Assembly (NCBI GenBank): GCA_018823705.1
Contig: JAHJHP010000031.1
Span: 1,982 to 65,981 of the forward strand
Origin: Candidatus Omnitrophota bacterium
GTDB lineage: Bacteria > Omnitrophota > Gorgyraeia > 2-01-FULL-45-10
Direction of reading: 5' to 3'
DNA length: 64,000 bases
Shown here: in pieces, positions 3,465 through 51,829 of the stretch
Layout of the letters: the number at the start of each line of letters is the position of its first letter
Numbering within the stretch: position 1 is the stretch's first letter
Program-made: the position numbers and the translations under genes
Notes under the pieces: model-generated
Told to the model about the DNA's origin: nothing
The model's input: only the letters and a program-made list of their open reading frames with translations
The model's database searches: none

Positions 3465-4538
3465 ATGCTGATGAAAAGAATAACGATATTGTCCGCGTTT
3501 ATAGTCATAATTTTGTTCACGCGCACGGCTGTAATGGCTCAGGAAACTGCCGGGAGTGACGCGCAGAAATCGGCGAAGACAAAGAACGCGATAAGCTGGC
3601 AGTCGATAGGCCAGAAGATGAAAGAATACAAAGGAATTTTGAAGGAGATCGTCAGTGATGCCGAGAAGAGCCTTAAAAAGATGGAAGAAGAATCTAAGGC
3701 CCGTGAGAGTGAAAAAGCGATGAAGGAAGCCGCCAAAAAGGCGAATGCGGAAGCTATCAAAAAAGCGGCGAAAAAAGCAGCTAAAAAGAAGGCCGCGGAT
3801 GAAGTCGTCGTGAAGGCTAATAAGGCAGCTGAAAAGAAGGCCGCGAAAGAGGCCATCGCGAAGGCAAAGAAGGCCGAGAAAGAAGCCGCCGCGAAGGCAA
3901 AGAAGGCCGAGAAAGAGGCCATCGCGAAGGCAAAGAAAGCCGAGAAAGAGGCCATCGCGAAGGCAAAGAAAGCCGAGAAAGAGGCCGCCGCGCAGGCAAA
4001 GAAAGCCGAGAAAGAGGCCGCCGCGCAGGCAAAGAAGGCTGCCAGGCAGAAGGCCACGGATGAAGCCGCCGCGAAGGCTGCCAGAGAGATTGAAAGGAAA
4101 AGGTCGGAAGAAGCCGCTATAATGGCGAAGAGTGCGTCAAGATTAAAAATCACGGAGCCCACTCAGGAGCCCCGCCTGTTACCTGCTACTAGACGTCCTG
4201 TGAAAAAACCCAGAGCGGTAAGAGAGGTAAAAAAAGAGAGCTCCGCGTCAACCGCTAAAAGTTCAGTAGACGCTAGGAGGCTTACACCTACAGAATTGGT
4301 TATAATTCCGGTGACGCATGTGAGGAAAAGACACTTGATCGATAGGCCTTCACCGGAAGCTCAGATGATCGTTGCCAGTGAAGAAGTCTCCGCTATATAC
4401 AGGGATGCGGTAGCGCTTTACTGGGATAATAAATACAGCGATGCTAAAGCGAAGTTCGAACAAGTCCAAAAGGCATTGCCTGAATATGCGCGCACGAGCT
4501 ACTATCTGAGGCGCGTCAAGGAAAAGCTAAGTAAGTGA
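3465..4538 (+). CDS. membrane-anchored Lys/Ala/Glu-rich tandem-repeat protein (TolA-domain-II-like helical region plus Pro-rich linker plus C-terminal globular domain)
   Basis: N-terminal hydrophobic segment. About six copies of an 11-aa unit (KAKKAEKEAIA/AAA), followed by a PTQEPRLLPATRRPVKKP linker. Confidence 0.5.
   Translation: MLMKRITILSAFIVIILFTRTAVMAQETAGSDAQKSAKTKNAISWQSIGQKMKEYKGILKEIVSDAEKSLKKMEEESKARESEKAMKEAAKKANAEAIKKAAKKAAKKKAADEVVVKANKAAEKKAAKEAIAKAKKAEKEAAAKAKKAEKEAIAKAKKAEKEAIAKAKKAEKEAAAQAKKAEKEAAAQAKKAARQKATDEAAAKAAREIERKRSEEAAIMAKSASRLKITEPTQEPRLLPATRRPVKKPRAVREVKKESSASTAKSSVDARRLTPTELVIIPVTHVRKRHLIDRPSPEAQMIVASEEVSAIYRDAVALYWDNKYSDAKAKFEQVQKALPEYARTSYYLRRVKEKLSK
3850..4060 (+). 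repeat. 33-nt in-frame tandem repeat (about 6 copies) inside the CDS
   Basis: Repeating gcgaaggcaaagaaRgccgagaaagaRgcc... units encoding the KAKKAEKEA(I/A)A repeats. Confidence 0.8.
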
Positions 4539-4554
4539 TTAGTTATTAGGACGT

Positions 4555-4800
4555 ATTAGGGGACGTGTCACTTTGGCCTGCCTGCCTGCGACCTGTTTAC
4601 CAGCAGGCAGGCAGGGACACTCCACTTTTTGTAAATTATCCATAACTACCGGCAAATTAACTATAAGTAGCCCAGGTTACTATTGTTATCAGCAGTAGGG
4701 GAGGTTTACCTGCCCGCCCGCAGCCGTATTCTTGCGAGCAGGCGGGAACCTCCCCTACCATAGGTCTTCCCGCTCGCCTCCCCCAAAGTGACACGTCCCC
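4555..4800. mobile_element. MITE-like non-autonomous element, copy 1 (terminal inverted repeats ATTAGGGGACGTGTCACTTTGG ... CCAAAGTGACACGTCCCC) with internal nested hairpins
   Basis: Left end at 4555-4576 is the reverse complement of the right end at 4783-4800. Same termini as the element at 48349-48463. Contains internal GC-rich hairpins (cctgcctgcctgc...gcaggcaggcagg; ggggaggtttacctgcccgcc...ggcgggaacctcccc). Confidence 0.6.
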
Positions 4801-30427: not shown

Positions 30428-31764
30428 CACTAAACGCGATGAAGACCCTCGAAAGAGACCTTCGTTTATCCAGGAGAGAGCTTGAAAGCATAGTCAAAAG
30501 CTTTCACCAAGAGATGAAAAAGGGCCTCACGGGGTCATCGGGTTCCCTGAAGATGATCCCCACCTATGTCGACAGACCCACCGGAAGCGAAAAAGGGAGA
30601 TACCTCGCCCTGGACCTGGGAGGTACGAACTTCAGGATACTGAGCCTGACGCTAAAGGGGCGCGGCATTCCCTCTGATAAACGGGTCATGAAGTTCGCGC
30701 TGAGGAAAAGGGATATCTCCACTACAGGCAAGAGGCTCTTTAAGTTCCTGGCCGGATCGATCAAAAAATTCATCAAAGAAAAGAAGATAGACCTCTCCGG
30801 AAGTATAGATCTCGGCTTCACATTCTCTTTTCCGGTCAAGACTACCGGCCCGGCCAGCGGGACGCTCATCGTCTGGACTAAGGGTTTCAGCGCAAGCGGC
30901 GTAGAAGGGCGCGATGTCGTGGCCCTATTGGAAAGGGCTATCGCGGACGAGAAGATCGACAACATATCTGTGGTAGCGCTTGCCAACGATACCGTAGGCA
31001 CGCTGGTGGCCAGGAGTTACGATGATAAAGATTGCGATGTCGGAGTCATAATAGGAACCGGCACCAATGCCTGTTACGTGGAAGATCTCCGTAATATCAG
31101 GAAGATGAAGAACCTGCGCCGGCAGCCTGGCACGATGATAATCAATATAGAGTGGGGTAATTTCAACAGGCTTAAAGCAACGCGATATGACAGGCAGCTT
31201 GACGGAGAGTCTATCAATCCCGGCGCCCAGATACTGGAGAAGATGGTCTCCGGAATGTATCTTGGCGAACTTTGCAGGCTCATAGCCGTCGACCTCATAT
31301 CCGAAAAGATATTATTCGGCGGCAGGGCCTGCGGAAACTTTAATAAAAATATGGCTTTTAGCGGCGAATTTGTGTCACAGGTATTGGCGGACAGGTCCCG
31401 GGGCTTGAGCGGGATCATATCTTTGTTACGGCGCCTGGGCGTGAAAGATCCGGGAACTGAAGACGGAAAAACGATAAGAAAGATCTGTAGCCTGCTGGCG
31501 GTAAGGGCCGCGCGCATAAGCGCCGCCGCGATATTCGCGGTCATCACCAGGATAGATCCGGATATAAAGAAGAGGCATATCGTTGCCATAGACGGCAGCG
31601 TTTATGAAAAACTTCCCGGATTTGCTGAAAATATTAAAAGTGCCGTTAGTGAATTATCGGGCGTTCGGACGGGGAAGATAAGGATATCGCTGACTAAAGA
31701 CGGTTCAGGCTATGGCGCGGCTATTATCGCGGCGGTGTCATCGGCGGAGGGGGACACTAAGTGA
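30424..31764 (+). CDS. hexokinase-family sugar kinase (eukaryote-type hexokinase fold)
   Basis: LALDLGGTNFRIL phosphate-1 motif. IGTGTNACYVE. 446 aa. Confidence 0.75.
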   Translation: MTLNAMKTLERDLRLSRRELESIVKSFHQEMKKGLTGSSGSLKMIPTYVDRPTGSEKGRYLALDLGGTNFRILSLTLKGRGIPSDKRVMKFALRKRDISTTGKRLFKFLAGSIKKFIKEKKIDLSGSIDLGFTFSFPVKTTGPASGTLIVWTKGFSASGVEGRDVVALLERAIADEKIDNISVVALANDTVGTLVARSYDDKDCDVGVIIGTGTNACYVEDLRNIRKMKNLRRQPGTMIINIEWGNFNRLKATRYDRQLDGESINPGAQILEKMVSGMYLGELCRLIAVDLISEKILFGGRACGNFNKNMAFSGEFVSQVLADRSRGLSGIISLLRRLGVKDPGTEDGKTIRKICSLLAVRAARISAAAIFAVITRIDPDIKKRHIVAIDGSVYEKLPGFAENIKSAVSELSGVRTGKIRISLTKDGSGYGAAIIAAVSSAEGDTK

Positions 31765-33041
31765 GGAATAAAAATAAAGTCCTTGATACTGACAAAGTAA
31801 GCAATCTGGAGCGTAAACGTATCGACGCGCAACTGCGCAAGAGCGATGAGCGCTATCGGGCACTTACTGAAATGGCCGAGGACCTTATATATATGGTAGA
31901 CAAGTCCGGGCACATAGTATATATAAATACCTTTGGCGCGGCGTACTTTGGTAAGAAACCCAAGGATATGATAGGTAAGTACCTTCCTGATATGTTCTTA
32001 CATGAAGAAGCAGCGCATTTTATGAGAAGCTTCAGAAAAGTCCTGAAGACCGGTAAGTCTGTCTTCATTTATGGTGAATTTGGATTTCATGGCAGTAGAT
32101 TCTGGCTGGATACGCGCCTGAGCCCTATAACCGACGATAACGGTAAGATAACGCATATAATGGGTATATCCCGGGACGTGACAAGCTATAGGCGGGCGGA
32201 GGAAGTGCTTGAGAGAGATAAGGTAGAGCTTGAGAGGCTGGTAAGAGAGAACAGTAAAAAACTTTTGGCAACTCAGAAAAAACTCGACAGGGCCGGCAGG
32301 TTAGCCGATATAGGGACGATCTCCGCAACGATTGCCCATGAATTGCGAAGTCCGCTGGCGGCTATCGGTTTAGCGGCTTATAATATAAGAACAAAGAGCA
32401 AGGACCCTCAGATCAGCGGCAATATACGGAATATAGAGATAAAGGTGCTCGAGAGTGACCAGATAATCAAGAATCTGCTGTTATACTCCGGGCTAAAATC
32501 GCCTATACGGGAGGTTGTAAAAGTTTGCGAGTTACTGAGCGAGTGCGTGGATCTTGCGCACTCTATGTTCCCGGAGCACGATATAAAGATACGTAAGATA
32601 TTCAAATGCCCGCGCGATACGACGTTGAAGGCGGATCCGGTGCAGCTGCAGGAGGTATTTAATAATATATTGAATAATTCCTGCGAGTCATTTGAGAAGA
32701 AGAAGGGCGACATAAAGATATCTGCATCCGTGTATAAGGAGGGTAAATTCAGAATAGTATTCAAAGATAACGGCCCGGGAATAAGCCCTGCGGTGCTTGA
32801 GCATATCTACGAGCCCTTCAACAGCACAAAAGCGGAAGGAACCGGATTGGGGCTGCCGGTCTGTAAGCAGATAGTAAATCTTCACGGCGGTAAGATGGAT
32901 ATAGTAAGTTTGCCGGGCAAGGGCACGACGATTACCATTTACCTGCCCGCCTGTGGTCGCACCCCACGCGGGCAGGCGGGACTTCCGCTTAAAAACGGTC
33001 AGGCACGTGGTCAGCAGAGGCCTATAAAAACCGAACCATAA
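31761..33041 (+). CDS. PAS-domain sensor histidine kinase
   Basis: PAS region. H-box IAHELRSPL. N/G1/G2 boxes (DNGPGISP, GTGLGL). Confidence 0.85.
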   Translation: MRNKNKVLDTDKVSNLERKRIDAQLRKSDERYRALTEMAEDLIYMVDKSGHIVYINTFGAAYFGKKPKDMIGKYLPDMFLHEEAAHFMRSFRKVLKTGKSVFIYGEFGFHGSRFWLDTRLSPITDDNGKITHIMGISRDVTSYRRAEEVLERDKVELERLVRENSKKLLATQKKLDRAGRLADIGTISATIAHELRSPLAAIGLAAYNIRTKSKDPQISGNIRNIEIKVLESDQIIKNLLLYSGLKSPIREVVKVCELLSECVDLAHSMFPEHDIKIRKIFKCPRDTTLKADPVQLQEVFNNILNNSCESFEKKKGDIKISASVYKEGKFRIVFKDNGPGISPAVLEHIYEPFNSTKAEGTGLGLPVCKQIVNLHGGKMDIVSLPGKGTTITIYLPACGRTPRGQAGLPLKNGQARGQQRPIKTEP

Positions 33042-33472: not shown

Positions 33473-33526
33473 GGCCTCGGTCGGAGACCTCGGCACTTAG
33501 CTAACACTGTGGCTTAATAAACTTGG
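33473..33526 (+). repeat. 54-nt leader repeat (family D: GGCCTCGGTCGGAGACCTCGGCACTTAGC-N12-GGCTTAATAAACTTGG), single copy, abutting the RBS
   Basis: Also present as two tandem copies at 36312-36417. Ends in cttggagg, i.e. it supplies or abuts the Shine-Dalgarno sequence. Confidence 0.7.
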
Positions 33527-33538
33527 AGGTGGCTTGAG

Positions 33539-36311: not shown

Positions 36312-36417
36312 GGCCTCGGTCGGAGACCTCGGCACTTAGCCAATATCGTGGCTTAATAAACTTGGCCTCGGTCGGAGACCTCGGCACTTAGCCAATATCG
36401 TGGCTTAATAAACTTGG
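36312..36417 (+). repeat. two tandem copies of 52-nt leader repeat family D, immediately upstream of the thi4 RBS
   Basis: Two near-identical units (ggcctcggtcggagacctcggcacttagccaatatcgtggcttaataaactt), head to tail, with no spacer. Confidence 0.75.
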
Positions 36418-36428
36418 AGGGCGGATAA

Positions 36429-37265: not shown

Positions 37266-37441
37266 GTAGCCCGGGCTCCTGCCTACCTGCTTTCCTATTG
37301 GCAAGTAGGCAGGCAGGTAAGCCCGGGCTACAATCGTGTATAACCGTAATAGTTTAGCCGGAAGAACAACTTACGACGTAGGGGACATTTAAATGTCCCC
37401 TACAACCTCGTAGAGATACTTCTTTATGCTAAACTATTACG
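37266..37441. repeat. intergenic palindromic repeat cluster: family B hairpin (GTAGCCCGGGCTCCTGCCTACCTGC...GCAGGTAAGCCCGGGCTAC) plus an adjacent ~100-bp imperfect palindrome
   Basis: Family B unit recurs at 51707-51786. Arms cgtaatagtttagc (37345-58) / gctaaactattacg (37428-41) enclose the palindrome gtaggggacatttaaatgtcccctac. Confidence 0.7.
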
Positions 37442-46291: not shown

Positions 46292-46341
46292 TATGAGTTG
46301 CCCCCATATACACAAAGAGATACAATATGGGTGTGAGTAAT

Positions 46342-46380
46342 AGTCCGGGCTTAAGCCCGGACTACAATTGTGGATAACTT
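46342..46380. repeat. palindromic repeat family C (AGTCCGGGCTTAAGCCCGGACT plus CAATTGTGGATAACT)
   Basis: The CAATTGTGGATAACT 15-mer also occurs at 51772-51786 and, reverse-complemented, inside the MITE at 48386-48400. Confidence 0.65.
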
Positions 46381-46381
46381 T

Positions 46382-46615
46382 ATGAAGAAGATGTCTTTAA
46401 TAAAACTCAAGGCGAATCGCAAGGGCAGGATCGTTGAGATTTTAGGAGGCTCGAACTTGCAGAGCAGGTTGATGAATATGGGTGTGTTTAAGGGCAAGGA
46501 AATCAGTAAGCTCAGCCATGTTGGGCTGAGAGGCCCCGTAGTAATAAAATCCGGCAGAAGCATTCTAGCTTTAGGTCATGGCGTAGCAGCCAAAGTGATA
46601 TTAGAGACAGAATGA
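46382..46615 (+). CDS. feoA: FeoA family protein
   Basis: SH3-like FeoA (GRIVEILGGSNLQSRLMNMGVFKGKEI). Confidence 0.85.
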   Translation: MKKMSLIKLKANRKGRIVEILGGSNLQSRLMNMGVFKGKEISKLSHVGLRGPVVIKSGRSILALGHGVAAKVILETE

Positions 46616-48342
46616 TAAAGAAGATATATTTAATCGGTAATCCTAATGTAGGGAAAAGTGTAGTATTTTCACGTCTCACCGGCGTGCAGGTAATATCTTC
46701 AAACTATCCCGGTACTACCATAGAGCTTTGTAAGGGTTATCTCAGCTTAGGCGCCGAAAAGATCGAAATCGTAGACCTGCCCGGAACTTACTCGTTGGAA
46801 CCTACCTCAAAAGCGGAAGAAGCCGCAATCTCTTTATTAAAGGAATACTCCAAAGACGAAATTGTGGTCGTCAATGTACTGGATTCGACCAATCTGGAAA
46901 GAAACTTACTTCTCACCTTACAACTTATTGAAGATGGGTTCCCGACAATTGTATGCCTGAACATGTGTGATGATGCTGTTCATAAGGGTGTCCATATCGA
47001 TATCAAGACGCTGGAAGATATCCTCCATGTTCCGGTGATCTCGACCTGCGCGATAACGGGAGCAGGCATAAAATTATTGATCGAAAGGATCAAGGAAGCG
47101 GCCCCTGTTCCGAGAGATAAACTCCTCCATGAAGAGCAATGGAAAGAGATAGGTTTGATAATAAACCGGGTCCAGCGCCTGGAACATCGCCATCATACTT
47201 TCAGGGAGGCTTTAGAGGACGCATCCGTACGGCCAGTCACCGGTCTTGTAATGGCAGCAGGCGTAATTTACGCTTCATTTAAGATTGTGCGTTTTATAGG
47301 TGAGTTTATTATCAACAGAATAACGGACCCGATATTTATCAATCTTTACCAACCCATACTGGAAAAGCTGACCCGTCATTGGCAGGAACAGAGTTTTTTA
47401 TTTCATCTGCTGATAGGCGATTTAATCAACGGCAAGATCGACTTTAAACAATCACTCGGCGTATTAACAACGGCTCCATACATTGAATTCGGAATGGTAT
47501 TGCCGTATATCATCTCGTTCTATTTTATCTTAAGTCTTTTAGAAGATATAGGATATCTGCCGCGCCTGGCGATATTATTGGACAATCTTCTGCATCGGTT
47601 GGGGCTGCATGGTTTTGCGATCATTCCCATGCTTTTAGGTTTTGGATGTAACGTACCCGGCATATTAGCTACCCGTACCTTAGAATCGAAACGTGAGAGG
47701 TTTATCGCGGCGACATTGATCTCGATAGGCGTGCCGTGTGTGCCGTTACAAGCCATGATATTCGGATTATTAGGTAGCTTTGGAGGATTTTATGTAGCAG
47801 GGGTATATCTGGTATTATTTTCTTTAGTCCTGATATTAGGATTGATCCTGAACCGTGTCTTAAAAGGTTATAGCCCGGAATTCCTGCTGGAGATCCCTCC
47901 GTACAGATTTCCTCCGTTGGACATTTTAGGCAGGAAATTATACTTTCGCATAAAGGGGTTTATAATTGAGGCGGTTCCGATCGTGCTCGTTGGAGTTGCC
48001 GTTATAAACATCCTTATTTACTTTAACGTATTCAGTATAATATCCGGTTTTTTTGCGCCGGTTATTCACGATCTATTAGGACTGCCAAAAGAGTCGATAA
48101 TTGCGCTGGTGATCGGATTCTTCAGAAAAGATGTAGCGGTCGGGATGTTGATGCCATTAGGGCTTACTGCCAAGCAGCTATTCATCGCCGCGACATTATT
48201 GGCAATATCGTTTCCGTGCGTTGCCACGTTTATAATCCTGTGGAAAGAGTTGGGTTTGAAAGATTTGATCAAATCCACCCTCATTATGATAACTATAAGC
48301 ATCATCGTGGGCTCAGCGCTCAATCTTCTGATATTACGCTGA
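46612..48342 (+). CDS. feoB: ferrous iron transport protein B (short form, 576 aa)
   Basis: N-terminal GTPase G1 GNPNVGKS, G3 DLPG. Polytopic permease domain. Confidence 0.9.
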   Translation: MIKKIYLIGNPNVGKSVVFSRLTGVQVISSNYPGTTIELCKGYLSLGAEKIEIVDLPGTYSLEPTSKAEEAAISLLKEYSKDEIVVVNVLDSTNLERNLLLTLQLIEDGFPTIVCLNMCDDAVHKGVHIDIKTLEDILHVPVISTCAITGAGIKLLIERIKEAAPVPRDKLLHEEQWKEIGLIINRVQRLEHRHHTFREALEDASVRPVTGLVMAAGVIYASFKIVRFIGEFIINRITDPIFINLYQPILEKLTRHWQEQSFLFHLLIGDLINGKIDFKQSLGVLTTAPYIEFGMVLPYIISFYFILSLLEDIGYLPRLAILLDNLLHRLGLHGFAIIPMLLGFGCNVPGILATRTLESKRERFIAATLISIGVPCVPLQAMIFGLLGSFGGFYVAGVYLVLFSLVLILGLILNRVLKGYSPEFLLEIPPYRFPPLDILGRKLYFRIKGFIIEAVPIVLVGVAVINILIYFNVFSIISGFFAPVIHDLLGLPKESIIALVIGFFRKDVAVGMLMPLGLTAKQLFIAATLLAISFPCVATFIILWKELGLKDLIKSTLIMITISIIVGSALNLLILR

Positions 48343-48348
48343 GGCATA

Positions 48349-48463
48349 GGGGACGTGTCACTTTGGGACACTCCACTTTATATAAGTTATCCACAATTGT
48401 AGTCCGGGCTACAAGTTCGCTATTAGTTCTCTTAAGTGGAGTGTCCCAAAGTGACACGTCCCC
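48349..48463. mobile_element. MITE-like element, copy 2: 115 bp with perfect 30-bp terminal inverted repeats (GGGGACGTGTCACTTTGGGACACTCCACTT)
   Basis: First 30 nt are the exact reverse complement of the last 30 nt. The core carries the family C motif ttatccacaattgtagtccgggctac. Confidence 0.75.
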
Positions 48464-48491
48464 TAATTCGCGTTAAATCAAAATATATATA

Positions 48492-48543
48492 TTGACGTAG
48501 ATACGAGATGTGATATTATGGTTATGGACATATGTTCATAACC
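48492..48543 (+). promoter_or_regulatory. promoter (TTGACG-16-TATTAT) followed by a 24-bp near-palindrome GGTTATGGACATATGTTCATAACC (candidate operator)
   Basis: Read directly from the sequence. One mismatch in the palindrome. Located immediately upstream of the DUF134 regulator gene. Confidence 0.4.
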
Positions 48544-48556
48544 AGCGGAGATTATT

Positions 48557-48862
48557 TTGCGCCCAAAAAAGACCAGATGGATACGTTGTTTACCCGGCGA
48601 AAGATGCTTCAAGCCACTTTGCAAGCCTTTGAATAAACTGAAAAGCGTGCATCTTACTCTTGACGAACTTGAAGCCTTAAGGCTCGCAGATCTTGACGGA
48701 ATGAAACAGGTTGATGCAGCAAAAAGACTTAAGATATCCAGGCCCACATTCTCAAGGATCGTATCTTCAGCGCGGAATAAGATAGCTGATGGCTTAGTTA
48801 ATATCAAAGCTATAAGGATTGAAGGGGGTTGCTGTAGAGTGATAAGGAGGAACGCGCGATGA
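48557..48862 (+). CDS. DUF134 (UPF0251) family putative DNA-binding protein
   Basis: FKPLCKP...LTLDELEALRLADLDGMKQVDAAKRLKISRPTFSRIV sigma-70 region-4-like HTH. TTG start per the ORF track. Confidence 0.7.
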   Translation: MRPKKTRWIRCLPGERCFKPLCKPLNKLKSVHLTLDELEALRLADLDGMKQVDAAKRLKISRPTFSRIVSSARNKIADGLVNIKAIRIEGGCCRVIRRNAR

Positions 48863-50163
48863 AAGGTCTAAAGAAACTCTATTGGCTTATAGGCATATTC
48901 ATCGTTATGTACTTTTTGCCGCTGGGGAATCCCAAGATAACGAATGCCATCTTTGAAGCATTTAAGCTTCTTCAATGGTACGTAATTAATCATACGCTCG
49001 CATGCGTGGTACCGGCCATGTTTATAGCAGGTGCAATATCGACATTTCTGTCCCAGGCCTTTGTTATGCGATATCTCGGCCCTAACGCAAACCGCGGCAT
49101 GGCCTATGCCGTAGCGTCTGTGTCGGGAGTTATACTCGCAGTATGTTCCTGCAGCGTCTTGCCGATGTTTGCCGGTATTTATACCATGGGAGCGGGGCTT
49201 GGGCCCGCAAGCGCTTTTCTTTATTCGGGTCCCGCGATAAACGTCATGGCAATATTTTTATCAGCACGCGTTCTTGGGTTCGACATAGGATTAGCCAGGG
49301 CAGTTGGCGCGATAGTCTTTGCCTGTGTCATAGGGCTATGCATGGCCTTTATCTTCAGGCGATCCGAACATGCCCGAACAAAAAAAGCGATGGAGCTTCC
49401 TCCTCCTCCGCATCCTGCGAGGCCGTTATGGAAGACAGCGCTCTACTTCTTATGCATGGTATTATTTCTTGTTTTTAGCGATTGGTATAATACCAACGAT
49501 GTAACTATTACGCTAAAAAACGGGATAGTAATGAAGGTGAATATCCAATATTCCACGCAGGACTTTATCGAAGCTAAGAAGTACGAAGCCGGTGGTAAGC
49601 TGGCTATAGATGCCGAGCGCCTAAACAGGCCTGATATAGCCGAAATAAAACCGGAAGATAACTTTGTCATGAGAGTTCACGCCATTAAGTGGTACCTCGC
49701 CGGGCTTATGGGGTTGACTATACTTATTATGCTGCATCGATGGTTCAAAAAAGACGAGATCCGACAGTGGCTTACTGCGACATGGGACTTCGGGATGATG
49801 ATAGTGCCGCTTCTATTCGGCGGTGTATTCTTGACCGGGTTTGTTGGAGCGTTACTTCCTGAGAAAGTGGTTGCGGCGTTTGTTGGAGGCAATAGCCTAT
49901 TTTCGAATTTTTTTGCATCCTTTATAGGCGTATTTTGGTACTTTGCCACTCTTACCGAGATACCCATTACGCAAATGTTAATGCGTCTTGGCATGGGCAA
50001 GGGGCCTGCGCTTGCGCTTCTTCTGGCCGGCCCTGCATTGTCAGTGCCGAGCATCCTGGTTATTAATAAGGTATTAGGATGGCGCAAGACGCTTGTTTTC
50101 TTCGTGCTTATAGTGGGATTTTCGACTATAGCGGGATATGTTTTTGGAATGATAATACGTTAA
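48859..50163 (+). CDS. DUF318 (YraQ/ArsP-like) family permease
   Basis: Polytopic protein with the Cys-containing motif AVCSCSVLPMFAGIYTMGAG. Confidence 0.7.
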   Translation: MKGLKKLYWLIGIFIVMYFLPLGNPKITNAIFEAFKLLQWYVINHTLACVVPAMFIAGAISTFLSQAFVMRYLGPNANRGMAYAVASVSGVILAVCSCSVLPMFAGIYTMGAGLGPASAFLYSGPAINVMAIFLSARVLGFDIGLARAVGAIVFACVIGLCMAFIFRRSEHARTKKAMELPPPPHPARPLWKTALYFLCMVLFLVFSDWYNTNDVTITLKNGIVMKVNIQYSTQDFIEAKKYEAGGKLAIDAERLNRPDIAEIKPEDNFVMRVHAIKWYLAGLMGLTILIMLHRWFKKDEIRQWLTATWDFGMMIVPLLFGGVFLTGFVGALLPEKVVAAFVGGNSLFSNFFASFIGVFWYFATLTEIPITQMLMRLGMGKGPALALLLAGPALSVPSILVINKVLGWRKTLVFFVLIVGFSTIAGYVFGMIIR

Positions 50164-50191
50164 ATGCAGGACTTAAAGGCGAGGAGATGAG

Positions 50192-50425
50192 ATGAAAATC
50201 GAAATTTTAGGAGTAGGATGTCCCAAGTGCAAACAACTTACTGCCAATGCAGAAGCGGCAGTAAGGGAGCTTAATATAGCCGCTGAAGTTTCCAAGGTGA
50301 CGGATATTGGAAAAATAACCGAATATGGCGTGATGATGACTCCTGCGCTTGCCCTTGATGGCACGATAGTTTCATTCGGCAAGGTATTAAGCAAGGATGA
50401 GATTAAGAAGATTATTTCAAAATAG
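50192..50425 (+). CDS. small thioredoxin-fold protein (redox-active disulfide protein 2-like)
   Basis: 77 aa. N-terminal CPKC redox motif in MKIEILGVGCPKC. Confidence 0.7.
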   Translation: MKIEILGVGCPKCKQLTANAEAAVRELNIAAEVSKVTDIGKITEYGVMMTPALALDGTIVSFGKVLSKDEIKKIISK

Positions 50426-50435
50426 GGAGGAAAGA

Positions 50436-50873
50436 TTGAAGAAACTATTTTTTATTCTTCTGGCAATTACTGCGCTAAGTAGTAGTGGAATAATTATTGC
50501 GCCGCCAGCTCAAGCAGGAGAGGACGCAAAAGGCGCTCATGTCGTCGCTTATTATTTTCACGGGACAATGCGCTGCTCTACCTGCCATAAACTGGAACAG
50601 TATTCAAAGGAAGCGATAGAGACTAATTTTAAAGATGCGCTTCAATCCGGAAAGCTGGAATATAAAGTTGTAAATGTGGAAGATAAAGGCAACGAACACT
50701 TTTGCGATGACTATCAACTTTATACGAAATCACTCATCCTGTCTTTAATCGAAGACGGTAAAGAAATAAAATGGAAAAATCTTGATAAAATATGGGAATA
50801 CGTCGGTAATAAACAGAAGTTTCTTGATTATGTTAAGGCGGGAGTCACCGATTTTCTGAAGGACGCTCAATGA
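50436..50873 (+). CDS. secreted CxxC protein (possible periplasmic thiol-disulfide oxidoreductase)
   Basis: Signal peptide KKLFFILLAITALSS. CSTCH motif. TTG start after RBS gggagg. The track ORF extends upstream in-frame across the previous gene's end. Confidence 0.4.
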   Translation: MKKLFFILLAITALSSSGIIIAPPAQAGEDAKGAHVVAYYFHGTMRCSTCHKLEQYSKEAIETNFKDALQSGKLEYKVVNVEDKGNEHFCDDYQLYTKSLILSLIEDGKEIKWKNLDKIWEYVGNKQKFLDYVKAGVTDFLKDAQ

Positions 50874-51559
50874 CAGAGATATTAATAAGCTTTGTTTCGG
50901 CATTGTGGCTGGGGATTTTGACATCAATTAGTCCGTGTCCTTTGGCCAGTAACGTGGCCGCCATCTCTTTTCTGTCCAAGAAGATAACCCATCCGGCACT
51001 TGTGTTTATCTCAGGATTGGCGTATACGCTGGGACGTATGGCCTCTTATGCGTTCCTGGGATGGATTATCATTAGTTATCTTTTAAGCGTTCCGCAGGTT
51101 GCTCAGTTCTTACAAAAATACATGGGCAAAGCTCTGGGGCCGATATTAATTCTTACCGGGCTTATTTTGTTGGAAATAATTACTATTCGCCTGCCAGGAC
51201 TATCGCTATCACAAAAGCACCATAATAAACTTGCGGAGTCCGGTGCCCCGGGCGCCTTTTTGCTTGGTTTTATCTTTGCTCTGGCGTTTTGTCCAATTTC
51301 GGCGGCGTTATTCTTTGGGAGCCTTATTCCTTTAGCTATTACCAATAAAAGCGGTATCGTGCTGCCATTTATTTACGGAATCGGCACAGGATTACCGGTT
51401 CTTTTATTTTCTGTTGCCATTGCGTTAGGTGTGAGATCGCTGAGTCATTGGTTTCATAGGATCACGCGGCTGGAATACTATACCCGAAAGATTACAGGAG
51501 TCGTATTTGTCCTCGTCGGCTTATACTACGTAGGGATATATGTGTTGAAATTATTTTAA
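50870..51559 (+). CDS. ccdA: cytochrome c biogenesis protein CcdA / DsbD-core family transmembrane thiol-disulfide transporter
   Basis: 6-TM protein with conserved Cys in TM1 (SISPCPLA) and TM4 (AFCPISAAL). Confidence 0.75.
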   Translation: MTEILISFVSALWLGILTSISPCPLASNVAAISFLSKKITHPALVFISGLAYTLGRMASYAFLGWIIISYLLSVPQVAQFLQKYMGKALGPILILTGLILLEIITIRLPGLSLSQKHHNKLAESGAPGAFLLGFIFALAFCPISAALFFGSLIPLAITNKSGIVLPFIYGIGTGLPVLLFSVAIALGVRSLSHWFHRITRLEYYTRKITGVVFVLVGLYYVGIYVLKLF

Positions 51560-51706: not shown

Positions 51707-51786
51707 GTAGCCCGGGCTCCTGCCTACCTGCTTTCCTATCGGCAAGTAGGCAGGCAGGTAAGCCTGAGCTGCAATTGTGGATAACT
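51707..51786. repeat. palindromic repeat family B copy 2 fused to family C 15-mer
   Basis: gtagcccgggctcctgcctacctgctttcctatcggcaagtaggcaggcaggtaagcctgagctgcaattgtggataact. Nearly identical to 37266-37330. Confidence 0.7.
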
Positions 51787-51829
51787 GTACGTAAGTGGGT
51801 TTTTAGTAGCTTATAAAGGTTGGCAAAAA

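Follow-up and report, generated by a model that had tools for sequence, protein, structure and literature searches.

A 64-kb stretch of DNA from Candidatus Omnitrophota (64,000 nucleotides, hereafter the window) contains a 115-bp element with perfect inverted ends between the feoB gene and the gene of a DUF134 regulator. A preliminary description, made from the letters of the sequence, took the perfect ends as a mark of recent mobility or of strong structural selection, and proposed a role as a bidirectional terminator or insulator. The locus raises the question of which kind of repeat this is, what keeps its ends perfect, and whether the neighbouring genes make use of it. Loci from other assemblies that were used for comparison are cited below by L numbers.

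Structure and position of the 115-bp element

The 30/30 terminal inverted repeats around a 55-bp core were confirmed by reading of the sequence and by a pattern search, and the flanking genes are those described (Table 1). With up to three mismatches allowed, the pattern search of the 64-kb window with GGGGACGTGTCACTTTGGGACACTCCACTT returned the two arms and nothing further, and no chance match to the arm was obtained in 100 dinucleotide-preserving shuffles. The inverted complementarity runs on through the flanking TA and then to 44 nt at 89%. When the element was folded as RNA, a perfect 32-bp stem was obtained on either strand (−70.8 and −71.5 kcal/mol), with z-scores of −12.7 and −11.6 for the two strands. 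A single arm folded as single-stranded DNA gave the structure GGA-(C bulge)-GTGTC, loop ACTTTGG, GACAC-TCC, i.e., an 8-bp stem with one bulge and a 7-nt loop, at −5.5 kcal/mol (z = −3.0; 1 of 200 shuffles was equally good).

Table 1. Features of the window discussed in the text, in window coordinates.
Feature	Position	Strand	Remarks
Whole element with TA flanks	48347..48465		element proper 48349-48463, 115 bp; REPIN-like doublet
Left arm, 30 nt	48349..48378	+	GGGGACGTGTCACTTTGGGACACTCCACTT; by itself a REP-like imperfect palindrome
Right arm	48434..48463	-	exact reverse complement of the left arm GGGGACGTGTCACTTTGGGACACTCCACTT
Variable core, 55 bp	48379..48433		left half, collapsed GTAG hairpin, right half
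Family C remnant GTAGTCCGGGCTAC	48399..48412	+	GTAG-type palindrome; full form GTAGTCCGGGCTTAAGCCCGGACTAC; second arm lacks 12 nt
feoB, 576 aa	46612..48342	+	coding sequence intact, length as in homologues; 115-bp element in its 3′ untranslated region
Sigma-70-like promoter match	48492..48519	+	TTGACG, 16-nt spacer, TG-TATTAT; consensus match only
Segment missing from two assemblies that are otherwise 99.9% identical	48470..51010		2541 bp; 115-bp element kept
Second family A element, 242 bp	4559..4800		outer 18-20 nt at both ends shared with the 115-bp element
Family B hairpin (CCTGCCTGCCTGC...GCAGGCAGGCAGG)	4577..4615	+	in the left-arm loop, between ACTTTGG and GACAC, without duplication
GTAGGGGAGGTT...AACCTCCCCTAC hairpin	4695..4758	+	inside the second family A element; B-like hairpin 4709-4747 nested in its loop
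Stand-alone family C unit	46340..46382	+	26-nt GTAG-type palindrome and tail CAATTGTGGATAACTT
Family C palindrome with C tail	37266..37348	+	family B hairpin (37278-37317) in its loop
Second composite of C and B	51707..51789	+	92% identity to 37266-37348

The left half of the core (TATATAAGTTATCCACAATT) resembles the cores of 94-nt copies from other loci, and the right half (AAGTTCGCTATTAGTTCTCTTA) those of L042 and L057. The core as such was found at no other locus in the data and gave no sign of recent copying. The family C motif that it contains (48387-48412) recurs on the opposite strand at 46352-46377 with two mismatches; the match at this second site is perfect across 27 nt at 46354-46380, and a third site, 51761-51786, matches at 85% and is joined to a family B hairpin. 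The occurrence of the motif in the core, alone near 46342-46380 and joined to B at 51707-51786 thus agrees with what had been described. Base-for-base identical copies of the 115 bp were found in two independent metagenome assemblies, L032 (ENA ERZ27247128) and L033 (JGI 3300014656), and the element is therefore not an assembly artefact. It is contained in all three assemblies that span the feoB/DUF134 locus.

The element begins 6 nt after the feoB stop codon (48340-48342), or 4 nt when the TA is counted. FeoA and FeoB are encoded upstream, a DUF134 gene (48557-48862) followed by an ArsP permease gene lies downstream, and every credible gene of the 64-kb window reads on the + strand. The promoter match located after the element (Table 1) suggests that DUF134 and the following genes may have their own promoter.

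Exact-protein look-up of the DUF134 and FeoB products of the window gave no record, and comparison loci were obtained through FeoB homologues. FeoB relatives at 85–87% identity (L034–L037) have no element 3′ of feoB and have different downstream genes; one of them carries an unrelated inverted repeat with 19-nt arms downstream of feoB. These relatives provide nothing against mobility, with the qualification that synteny is broken and that they offer no true empty site. Flank-to-flank BLAST of all fetched loci returned homologous filled sites only, with no empty site and no excision or insertion junction. The join predicted for excision of 48349-48463 is ...GCTGAGGCA(TA)ATTCGCGTT....

A presence/absence difference at the locus concerns its right-hand neighbourhood. 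The segment missing from two assemblies (Table 1) comprises DUF134, ArsP, an ORF of 158 aa and the start of a DsbD_2 gene (~47 codons), and its left breakpoint lies 6 nt to the right of the element, with a 2-nt (TC) microhomology. The microhomology at the junction and the truncated DsbD_2 gene indicate that the absence is due to a deletion in those strains. A strain-level deletion of 2.5 kb beside the element fits the behaviour of long inverted repeats as fragile sites. In the deletion variant, the gene caller starts a DsbD gene inside the element. An integron attC reading was also considered for this locus, a GTTAAAT sequence lying 10 nt to the right of the element, and was rejected: the deletion is joined elsewhere than at G|TT, its breakpoint on the right lies inside dsbD with a 2-nt microhomology, and there is no inverse core site.

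Invariant arms, variable cores and nested composites

The 18-nt start of the arm was found at 31 loci in GTDB genomes. Some 24 of these loci have a REP-like context and belong to Omnitrophota/PVC MAGs from several species (UBA6215, WOR_2, fen_1319/1320 and SO_2017 among them), where the arm start is part of 29-nt perfect palindromes, 60-nt doublets and longer doublets. Fully palindromic 29-nt singlets with the same arm sequence are exemplified by L003, L004 and L025. Matches of the 18-mer in Clostridia, Amorphus, Pirellulales and Anaerolineales were dismissed as chance, since they are unrelated palindromes or conserved coding sequence. The 26-nt arm was present in 47 metagenome contigs, of which 16 came from JGI 3300014656, where a window-identical contig (L033/L064) was found as well. 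As judged from these sequence matches, the family appears to be confined to Candidatus Omnitrophota. The arm was absent from 2.9 million viral contigs, and a phage or plasmid vehicle was rejected on this ground. The copies observed number tens at most, many of them within 300 nt of contig ends; the elements are extragenic and lie 0–22 nt from stop codons, the two window copies at 6 and 18 nt.

Ten complete short elements were obtained, with lengths of 79, 94–96 (six copies), 115, 131 and 164 bp. All 20 of their arms and the arms of a transposase-bearing element described below are identical over 28–30 nt. The exact search had picked one arm per element, the other ten arms being independent of that search, and these ten showed 0 substitutions in 280 positions. 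In contrast, the cores of the six 94–96-nt copies share only 77–93% identity (mean 82%), and in the homologous pair L046/L063, with ~89% identity in the shared flank, six differences were found in the core and none in the arms (60/60 identical). Because all these arms are identical while cores vary, and the core of the 115-bp element is unique, its perfect 30/30 match reflects a sequence constraint on the whole family and is not a sign of recent mobility, as had been proposed. Selfish transposition alone does not easily explain old copies with invariant arms.

The second family A element of the window lies 18 nt past the stop codon of ORF 3465-4538, and its right arm diverges after position ~19. 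This element and the composites listed in Table 1 disclose how the three repeat families are combined. Family B, CCTGCCT.CCTGC...GCAGG.AGGCAGG, was found in seven occurrences, five in a family C loop, one in the loop of a family A arm and one alone (L085), with no duplication at any of the seven. Family C is intact inside the A cores of L047 and L055, collapsed in the 115-bp element and alone at 46340-46382, between a sulfite-reductase-like gene and feoA. Three kinds of nesting were observed: B lies in C loops, A cores hold C, and B interrupts an A arm at its loop. The preliminary description was right that A, B and C form composite units; these units are nested insertions into hairpin loops, however, and not products of recombination.

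Position 18|19 of the arm, the loop-stem junction, recurs as a point of breakage or joining in four independent events, namely the B insertion at window position 4577, the insertion at L028, the deletion at L016 and the diverged right arm at window position 4783.

A Y1/HUH transposase between the same arms

No transposase gene was found within the 64-kb window. At L011, L022/L073, L056 and L070, a single ORF of 196 aa lies between two inverted arms. L070, from JGI 3300014656, is a 747-bp element whose perfect 30-nt termini are the same as the arms of the 115-bp element. Identical 30-nt arms were found in L070/L085–L088, and identical 26-nt arms in L011, L022 and L056. The same protein (P0121), between the same arms, occupies one fixed locus, after genes of the DUF362 and ferredoxin types, in the MAGs GCA_018815945.1, GCA_018813565.1 and GCA_018817565.1 and in ERZ928008. 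In GCA_018815945.1, GCA_018813565.1 and ERZ928008, the DnaK and PEPCK genes of the window were matched at 98.8–99.95% DNA identity. MAGs and metagenomes that share 99.4–99.95% identity with the window count as its population, and the 747-bp element belongs to it. The presence of near-identical window DNA in MAGs that bear P0121 indicates that the organism of the window carries the transposase gene as well, a link made through near-identical MAGs and samples and not within one closed genome. Membership of the 115-bp element in a repeat family of the mobile type, as first proposed, is supported both by the dispersed copies and by the transposase-bearing element with the same arms.

The 196-aa protein matched the Pfam family Y1_Tnp with E = 1.9e-16. 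Against the NCBIfam model REP_Tyr_transpos (REP-associated tyrosine transposase), scores of 68–78 bits were obtained, just below the cutoff of 80, as compared with 20 bits for IS200. An HUH motif (NHFHLL) and a tyrosine motif (RYIERNP) do not vary among 24 homologues with identities as low as 50%, and the enzyme has a conserved C-terminal extension. A phmmer search of the PDB with the single sequence gave no match, and a four-sequence profile gave 4ER8, the E. coli TnpA_REP, as its sole match. In a fold search with the AlphaFold model (pLDDT 89, pTM 0.85), 4ER8 was again the best match (E = 2.5e-9, TM 0.65/0.76), the TnpA proteins of IS200, IS608 and ISDra2 being four orders of magnitude weaker (E ~2e-5). 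The protein is accordingly classed, on its predicted fold and profile scores, as a RAYT-type Y1/HUH transposase rather than one of the IS200 type. More than 1000 relatives were found at E ≤ 1e-20, those with a name being mostly from Omnitrophota. A relative at 55% identity (L091) has another inverted repeat on its flanks, and one at 71% identity (L089) has diverged or truncated arms; the enzyme and its arms therefore change together. The L011-type gene is syntenic across MAGs, with a neighbouring protein 83% identical; it is degraded in L016, where a deletion at the syntenic locus has left just 18 nt of arm, and absent in L068.

The terminal repeats by themselves would also suit a classical MITE, derived from an insertion sequence with a DDE transposase (IS630/Tc1-mariner), moved by cut-and-paste and flanked by a TA target duplication. 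Such an element would have long and perfect terminal inverted repeats, and TA does stand on both sides of the 115-bp element and on both sides of five of the ten complete elements. However, among 98 arms the flanking dinucleotide, A/T-rich overall, was TA at only 34% (TT 22%, AA 12%, AT 10%), the two sides are often unequal (AT/TT, CA/AA, GA/TA), and some flanks are complementary instead of direct (AA...TT at the RAYT element). The TA flank is thus a preference or a part of the element, and not a fixed target duplication. Moreover, the nested B insertions lack any duplication, and all coding elements found with these termini encode a Y1/HUH and not a DDE enzyme. A DDE-type MITE is very improbable.

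The signs of movement are indirect and consist of the nested insertions, the remnant at L016 and the recurrent 18|19 breakpoints. An immobile relic of a past expansion, with arms kept alike only by arm-to-arm correction within each element, would be in line with a core unique to its locus, with fixation of the element in three assemblies, with the many degenerate or nested copies and with the fact that no transposition junctions were seen. Such correction keeps the arms of an element complementary, but not identical across ten loci and a transposase element, and the same population holds an intact, conserved transposase gene with intact arms. This explanation was judged distinctly unlikely.

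Relation to known repeats and to the host genes

The best explanation, taken with a probability of about 0.8, places the 115-bp element in the REP/REPIN class, as a non-autonomous mobile DNA hairpin that a RAYT-like enzyme moves in trans; the term TIR repeat would fit it equally well. REPINs have invariant ends and a less conserved spacer (PMC3116915, Bertels and Rainey 2011). The likeness extends to the two inverted imperfect palindromes that together with their spacer form one long hairpin (PMC3116915; PMC2817692, Nunvar 2010; PMC5581495), to an extragenic location mostly just after genes, with the same invariant ends and variable spacer, to a Y1/HUH gene between inverted copies of the same repeats at one fixed locus, and to the predicted fold of the enzyme, which is closest to TnpA_REP (4ER8, PMC3479197).

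The differences from REPIN/RAYT systems are also clear. The Omnitrophota arms are longer (30 nt) and, in the 98 arms checked, lack the unpaired 5′ GTAG tag: the 4 nt preceding GGGACG were TTAG in 16, ATAG in 13, TTTG in 13 and GTAG in one; TA(G) is found at about a third of the arms. The tag is the one defining feature of these systems, among those tested with a clear outcome, that the arms lack. GTAG is present in the same window on family C and on the GTAGGGGA hairpins. Copies apparently number tens here and hundreds in classical REPs, the host is an Omnitrophota bacterium whereas the studied cases are from Proteobacteria and Cyanobacteria, and the 196-aa enzyme has its C-terminal extension and a score just under the NCBIfam RAYT cutoff.

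In TIRYT/TIRtron elements, a RAYT-like gene lies between long TIRs and not between GTAG REPs, and the TIR repeats form moderately abundant families organised as dimers (PMC3733652). They have been reported in the PVC superphylum and in Acidobacteria, Omnitrophota not being covered (PMC3733652), and the motif GGGGWSAS is shared by only some TIRs (PMC3733652, Di Nocera et al. 2013). The tyrosine transposase flanked by long TIRs, the moderately abundant family of dimers, the G-rich repeat start (here GGGGACGT) and the partial self-complementarity of some repeats were all found in the present family. On the other hand, GGGGACGT agrees with GGGGWSAS at 6/8 positions, and neither three-level nesting nor a population of invariant arms with variable cores is described in PMC3733652. 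A copy number of only tens fits the moderately abundant TIR families of Di Nocera better than the REPINs of Pseudomonas and E. coli.

As in enterobacterial BIMEs, several types of palindromic repeat are mosaicked in one intergenic region (for example, window 37266-37441 and the composite A elements); BIMEs alternate REP types linearly, however, whereas the Omnitrophota units nest in each other's loops. With IS200/IS605 elements (IS608, ISDra2), the family shares the transposase superfamily, presumably hairpin recognition on single-stranded DNA and, as in the nested B insertions, insertion without target duplication. Those elements differ in having subterminal hairpins, no terminal inverted repeats and usually many copies, and both the profile scores (20 bits as against 74–78) and the fold search favour RAYT over them.

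For a REP/REPIN-class hairpin of this kind, the following mechanism may be put forward. The enzyme would recognise the hairpins that the arms form in single-stranded DNA, much as REPs are recognised by TnpA_REP of E. coli. It would cut and rejoin at the arms and in this way move the short elements, or maintain them, in trans. An element whose arms do not stay intact would drop out of the family, which would explain why the arms are invariant while the cores drift and gain C and B hairpins in single-stranded loops. From the breakpoints, the cut is predicted at ACTTTGG^GACAC or beside it, with TA^GGGG as the alternative.

At the RNA level, the proposal of a bidirectional terminator or insulator is weak. 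A scan for the terminator consensus found no T-run after the main stem, which is followed by TAATTCGCGTTAAATC; an intrinsic (Rho-independent) terminator was rejected for lack of this T/U run, and the only terminator-like match was a weak 6-bp stem inside the core. The whole window gave no Rfam match at gathering thresholds, and a permissive scan of 48250-48600 returned only sub-threshold miRNA-precursor models, i.e., generic long hairpins, and a known structured RNA was rejected on this basis. Since every credible gene is on the + strand, a bidirectional terminator has no object here. Only the analogy with the REPs of E. coli makes a one-directional effect of a 3′-UTR hairpin on the feoAB mRNA plausible, REP325 being a partly Rho-dependent terminator and an mRNA stabiliser (bioRxiv 10.64898/2026.03.23.713779). 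The feoAB message probably ends with a transcribed copy of the element, which would form a 32-bp RNA stem 4–6 nt past the stop codon. By the same analogy, this stem would shield the mRNA before it from 3′ exonucleases, reduce read-through into DUF134-arsP, or both.

It is possible, if on the unlikely side, that such a service to the host is the main reason for retention of the element between feoAB and DUF134-arsP, as an attenuator or terminator, a stabiliser of mRNA 3′ ends or an RNase III site, its transposon ancestry being secondary. Arms that remain invariant while flanks and cores diverge are hard to explain for neutral relics, and the stereotyped placement 0–22 nt past stop codons, the highly stable stem on the mRNA strand, the separate promoter-like site after the element and the REP325 precedent (bioRxiv 10.64898/2026.03.23.713779) all agree with a host function. 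In another Omnitrophota contig (L051), each of six genes has after it a doublet of the same type that carries a TATAAT box and, with a T-run, a hairpin resembling a terminator. The 115-bp element, in turn, has no T-tract behind its main stem and belongs to no Rfam family at threshold, and FeoB relatives at 85–87% identity manage without it. Selection for a structure would also allow compensatory changes in the arms, and none was seen, so that the constraint is on the sequence, as for recognition by a protein.

A joint reading, with features not so far described for RAYT-type systems, combines mosaics that arise by duplication-free insertion into loops, position 18|19 as the cleavage site of the enzyme, and arms selected by the host as gene punctuation. 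It is unlikely; its last part rests on the invariant arms at old loci and on the cassette-like gene array of L051, in which the arms would serve as spacers that bear terminators and promoters. Further study may be worthwhile for the nested loop insertions, the 18|19 breakpoint and the L051 array.

The 115-bp element represents a known kind of bacterial repeat, of which it is a new member, and not a new kind. In a full-text literature search, no description of such repeats in Omnitrophota was found. Hairpin repeats of this type break metagenome assemblies and are overlooked by gene callers, which read through them. Biochemical work on a RAYT-like enzyme gains a concrete substrate and a predicted cut site from the constant arms, from the clean insertions into loops and from the breakpoint that recurs. 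The element extends REP/REPIN-RAYT biology, studied earlier almost only in Proteobacteria and Cyanobacteria, to Omnitrophota, a phylum of uncultured, often ultra-small and host-dependent bacteria.

A strain-level deletion beside the 115-bp element

A stretch of 2541 bp, whose left end lies 6 nt to the right of the 115-bp hairpin element, is missing from L032 (ERZ27247128) and L033 (JGI 3300014656), both of them assemblies that otherwise match the window at 99.9% identity. The missing segment contains DUF134, ArsP, an ORF of 158 aa and the 5' end of the DsbD_2 gene (its first ~47 codons), and its junction showed a 2-nt microhomology, TC. This absence is a strain-level deletion adjoining a long inverted repeat. 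An inverted repeat of 118 bp with 19-nt arms TAAGTTTGCACCCGGTACA, unrelated to the 115-bp element, was found in L034, ~100 nt downstream of feoB in an 87%-identical FeoB relative.

Positions of the repeats and related sites
Feature	Sequence	Position	Containing ORF
Deleted segment	window	48470-51010
Deletion counterpart site	L032	3649-3660
Deletion counterpart site	L033	3699-3710
118-bp inverted repeat	L034	11835-11952
C+B composite	window	37266-37348
Inverted repeat, 22-nt arms	window	37345-37441
GTAG hairpin	window	37378-37403
B-like hairpin	window	32942-32980	31761-33041
57-nt repeat	window	33473-33529, 36312-36420
33-nt tandem repeat	window	3780-4063	3465-4538
Transposase element	L011	6724-7433
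Left-arm remainder	L016	619-636
Permease/aldolase abutment	L068	~1419
60-nt doublet	L017	896-955
60-nt doublet	L020	156-215
Doublet with insertion	L028	662-742
Doublet array	L051	1600-6500
A-type arms	L001	2013-2812	UvrD-like helicase

Other repeats and strand bias in the window

A further inverted repeat (22-nt arms, 86% complementary), which encloses the GTAG hairpin GTAGGGGACATTTAAATGTCCCCTAC, comes straight after a composite of the C and B hairpin families, the two forming a BIME-like mosaic within a single spacer. A B-like hairpin (CCTGCCCGCCTGT...GCGGGCAGGCGGG) occupies the 3' part of an ORF. Three copies of a 57-nt repeat, two of them in tandem, end in GGAGG immediately upstream of start codons, and this repeat may be a common 5' leader with a ribosome-binding site. 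A 33-nt tandem repeat encodes a repetitive Lys/Ala/Glu-rich protein segment. All real-looking ORFs of at least 150 aa (positions 1-64000) are on the + strand, an unusually strong strand bias across 64 kb.

A-type arms at other loci

The transposase element (two inverted A-type arms around a transposase ORF) lies between permease and aldolase genes in L011, L022 and L012; at the same site all that is left of it in L016 is 18 nt of the left arm, and in L068 the two genes abut without it. Between the orthologous 60-nt doublets of L017 and L020, from different MAGs, the 16-nt spacer is inverted with the orientation of the outer arms unchanged, and compared with these the orthologous doublet of L028 carries an additional insertion of ~21 nt at arm position 18|19, the loop-stem junction. 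Many arm-bearing elements of L039-L083 (sample 3300014656) are no more than about 300 nt away from the end of a contig; short-read assemblies are evidently broken by these repeats.

L051 (Ga0272441_10016074) has six small genes, mostly without Pfam matches and one of them a papain-like protease/GNAT fusion. One and the same A-type doublet of ~120 nt comes after each of them, and this doublet includes a TATAAT box and a terminator-like hairpin that has a T-run; this layout resembles a cassette array. The two arms in the 1049-aa helicase ORF of L001 are in frame and are intragenic repeats, like the REPs reported in repair genes.
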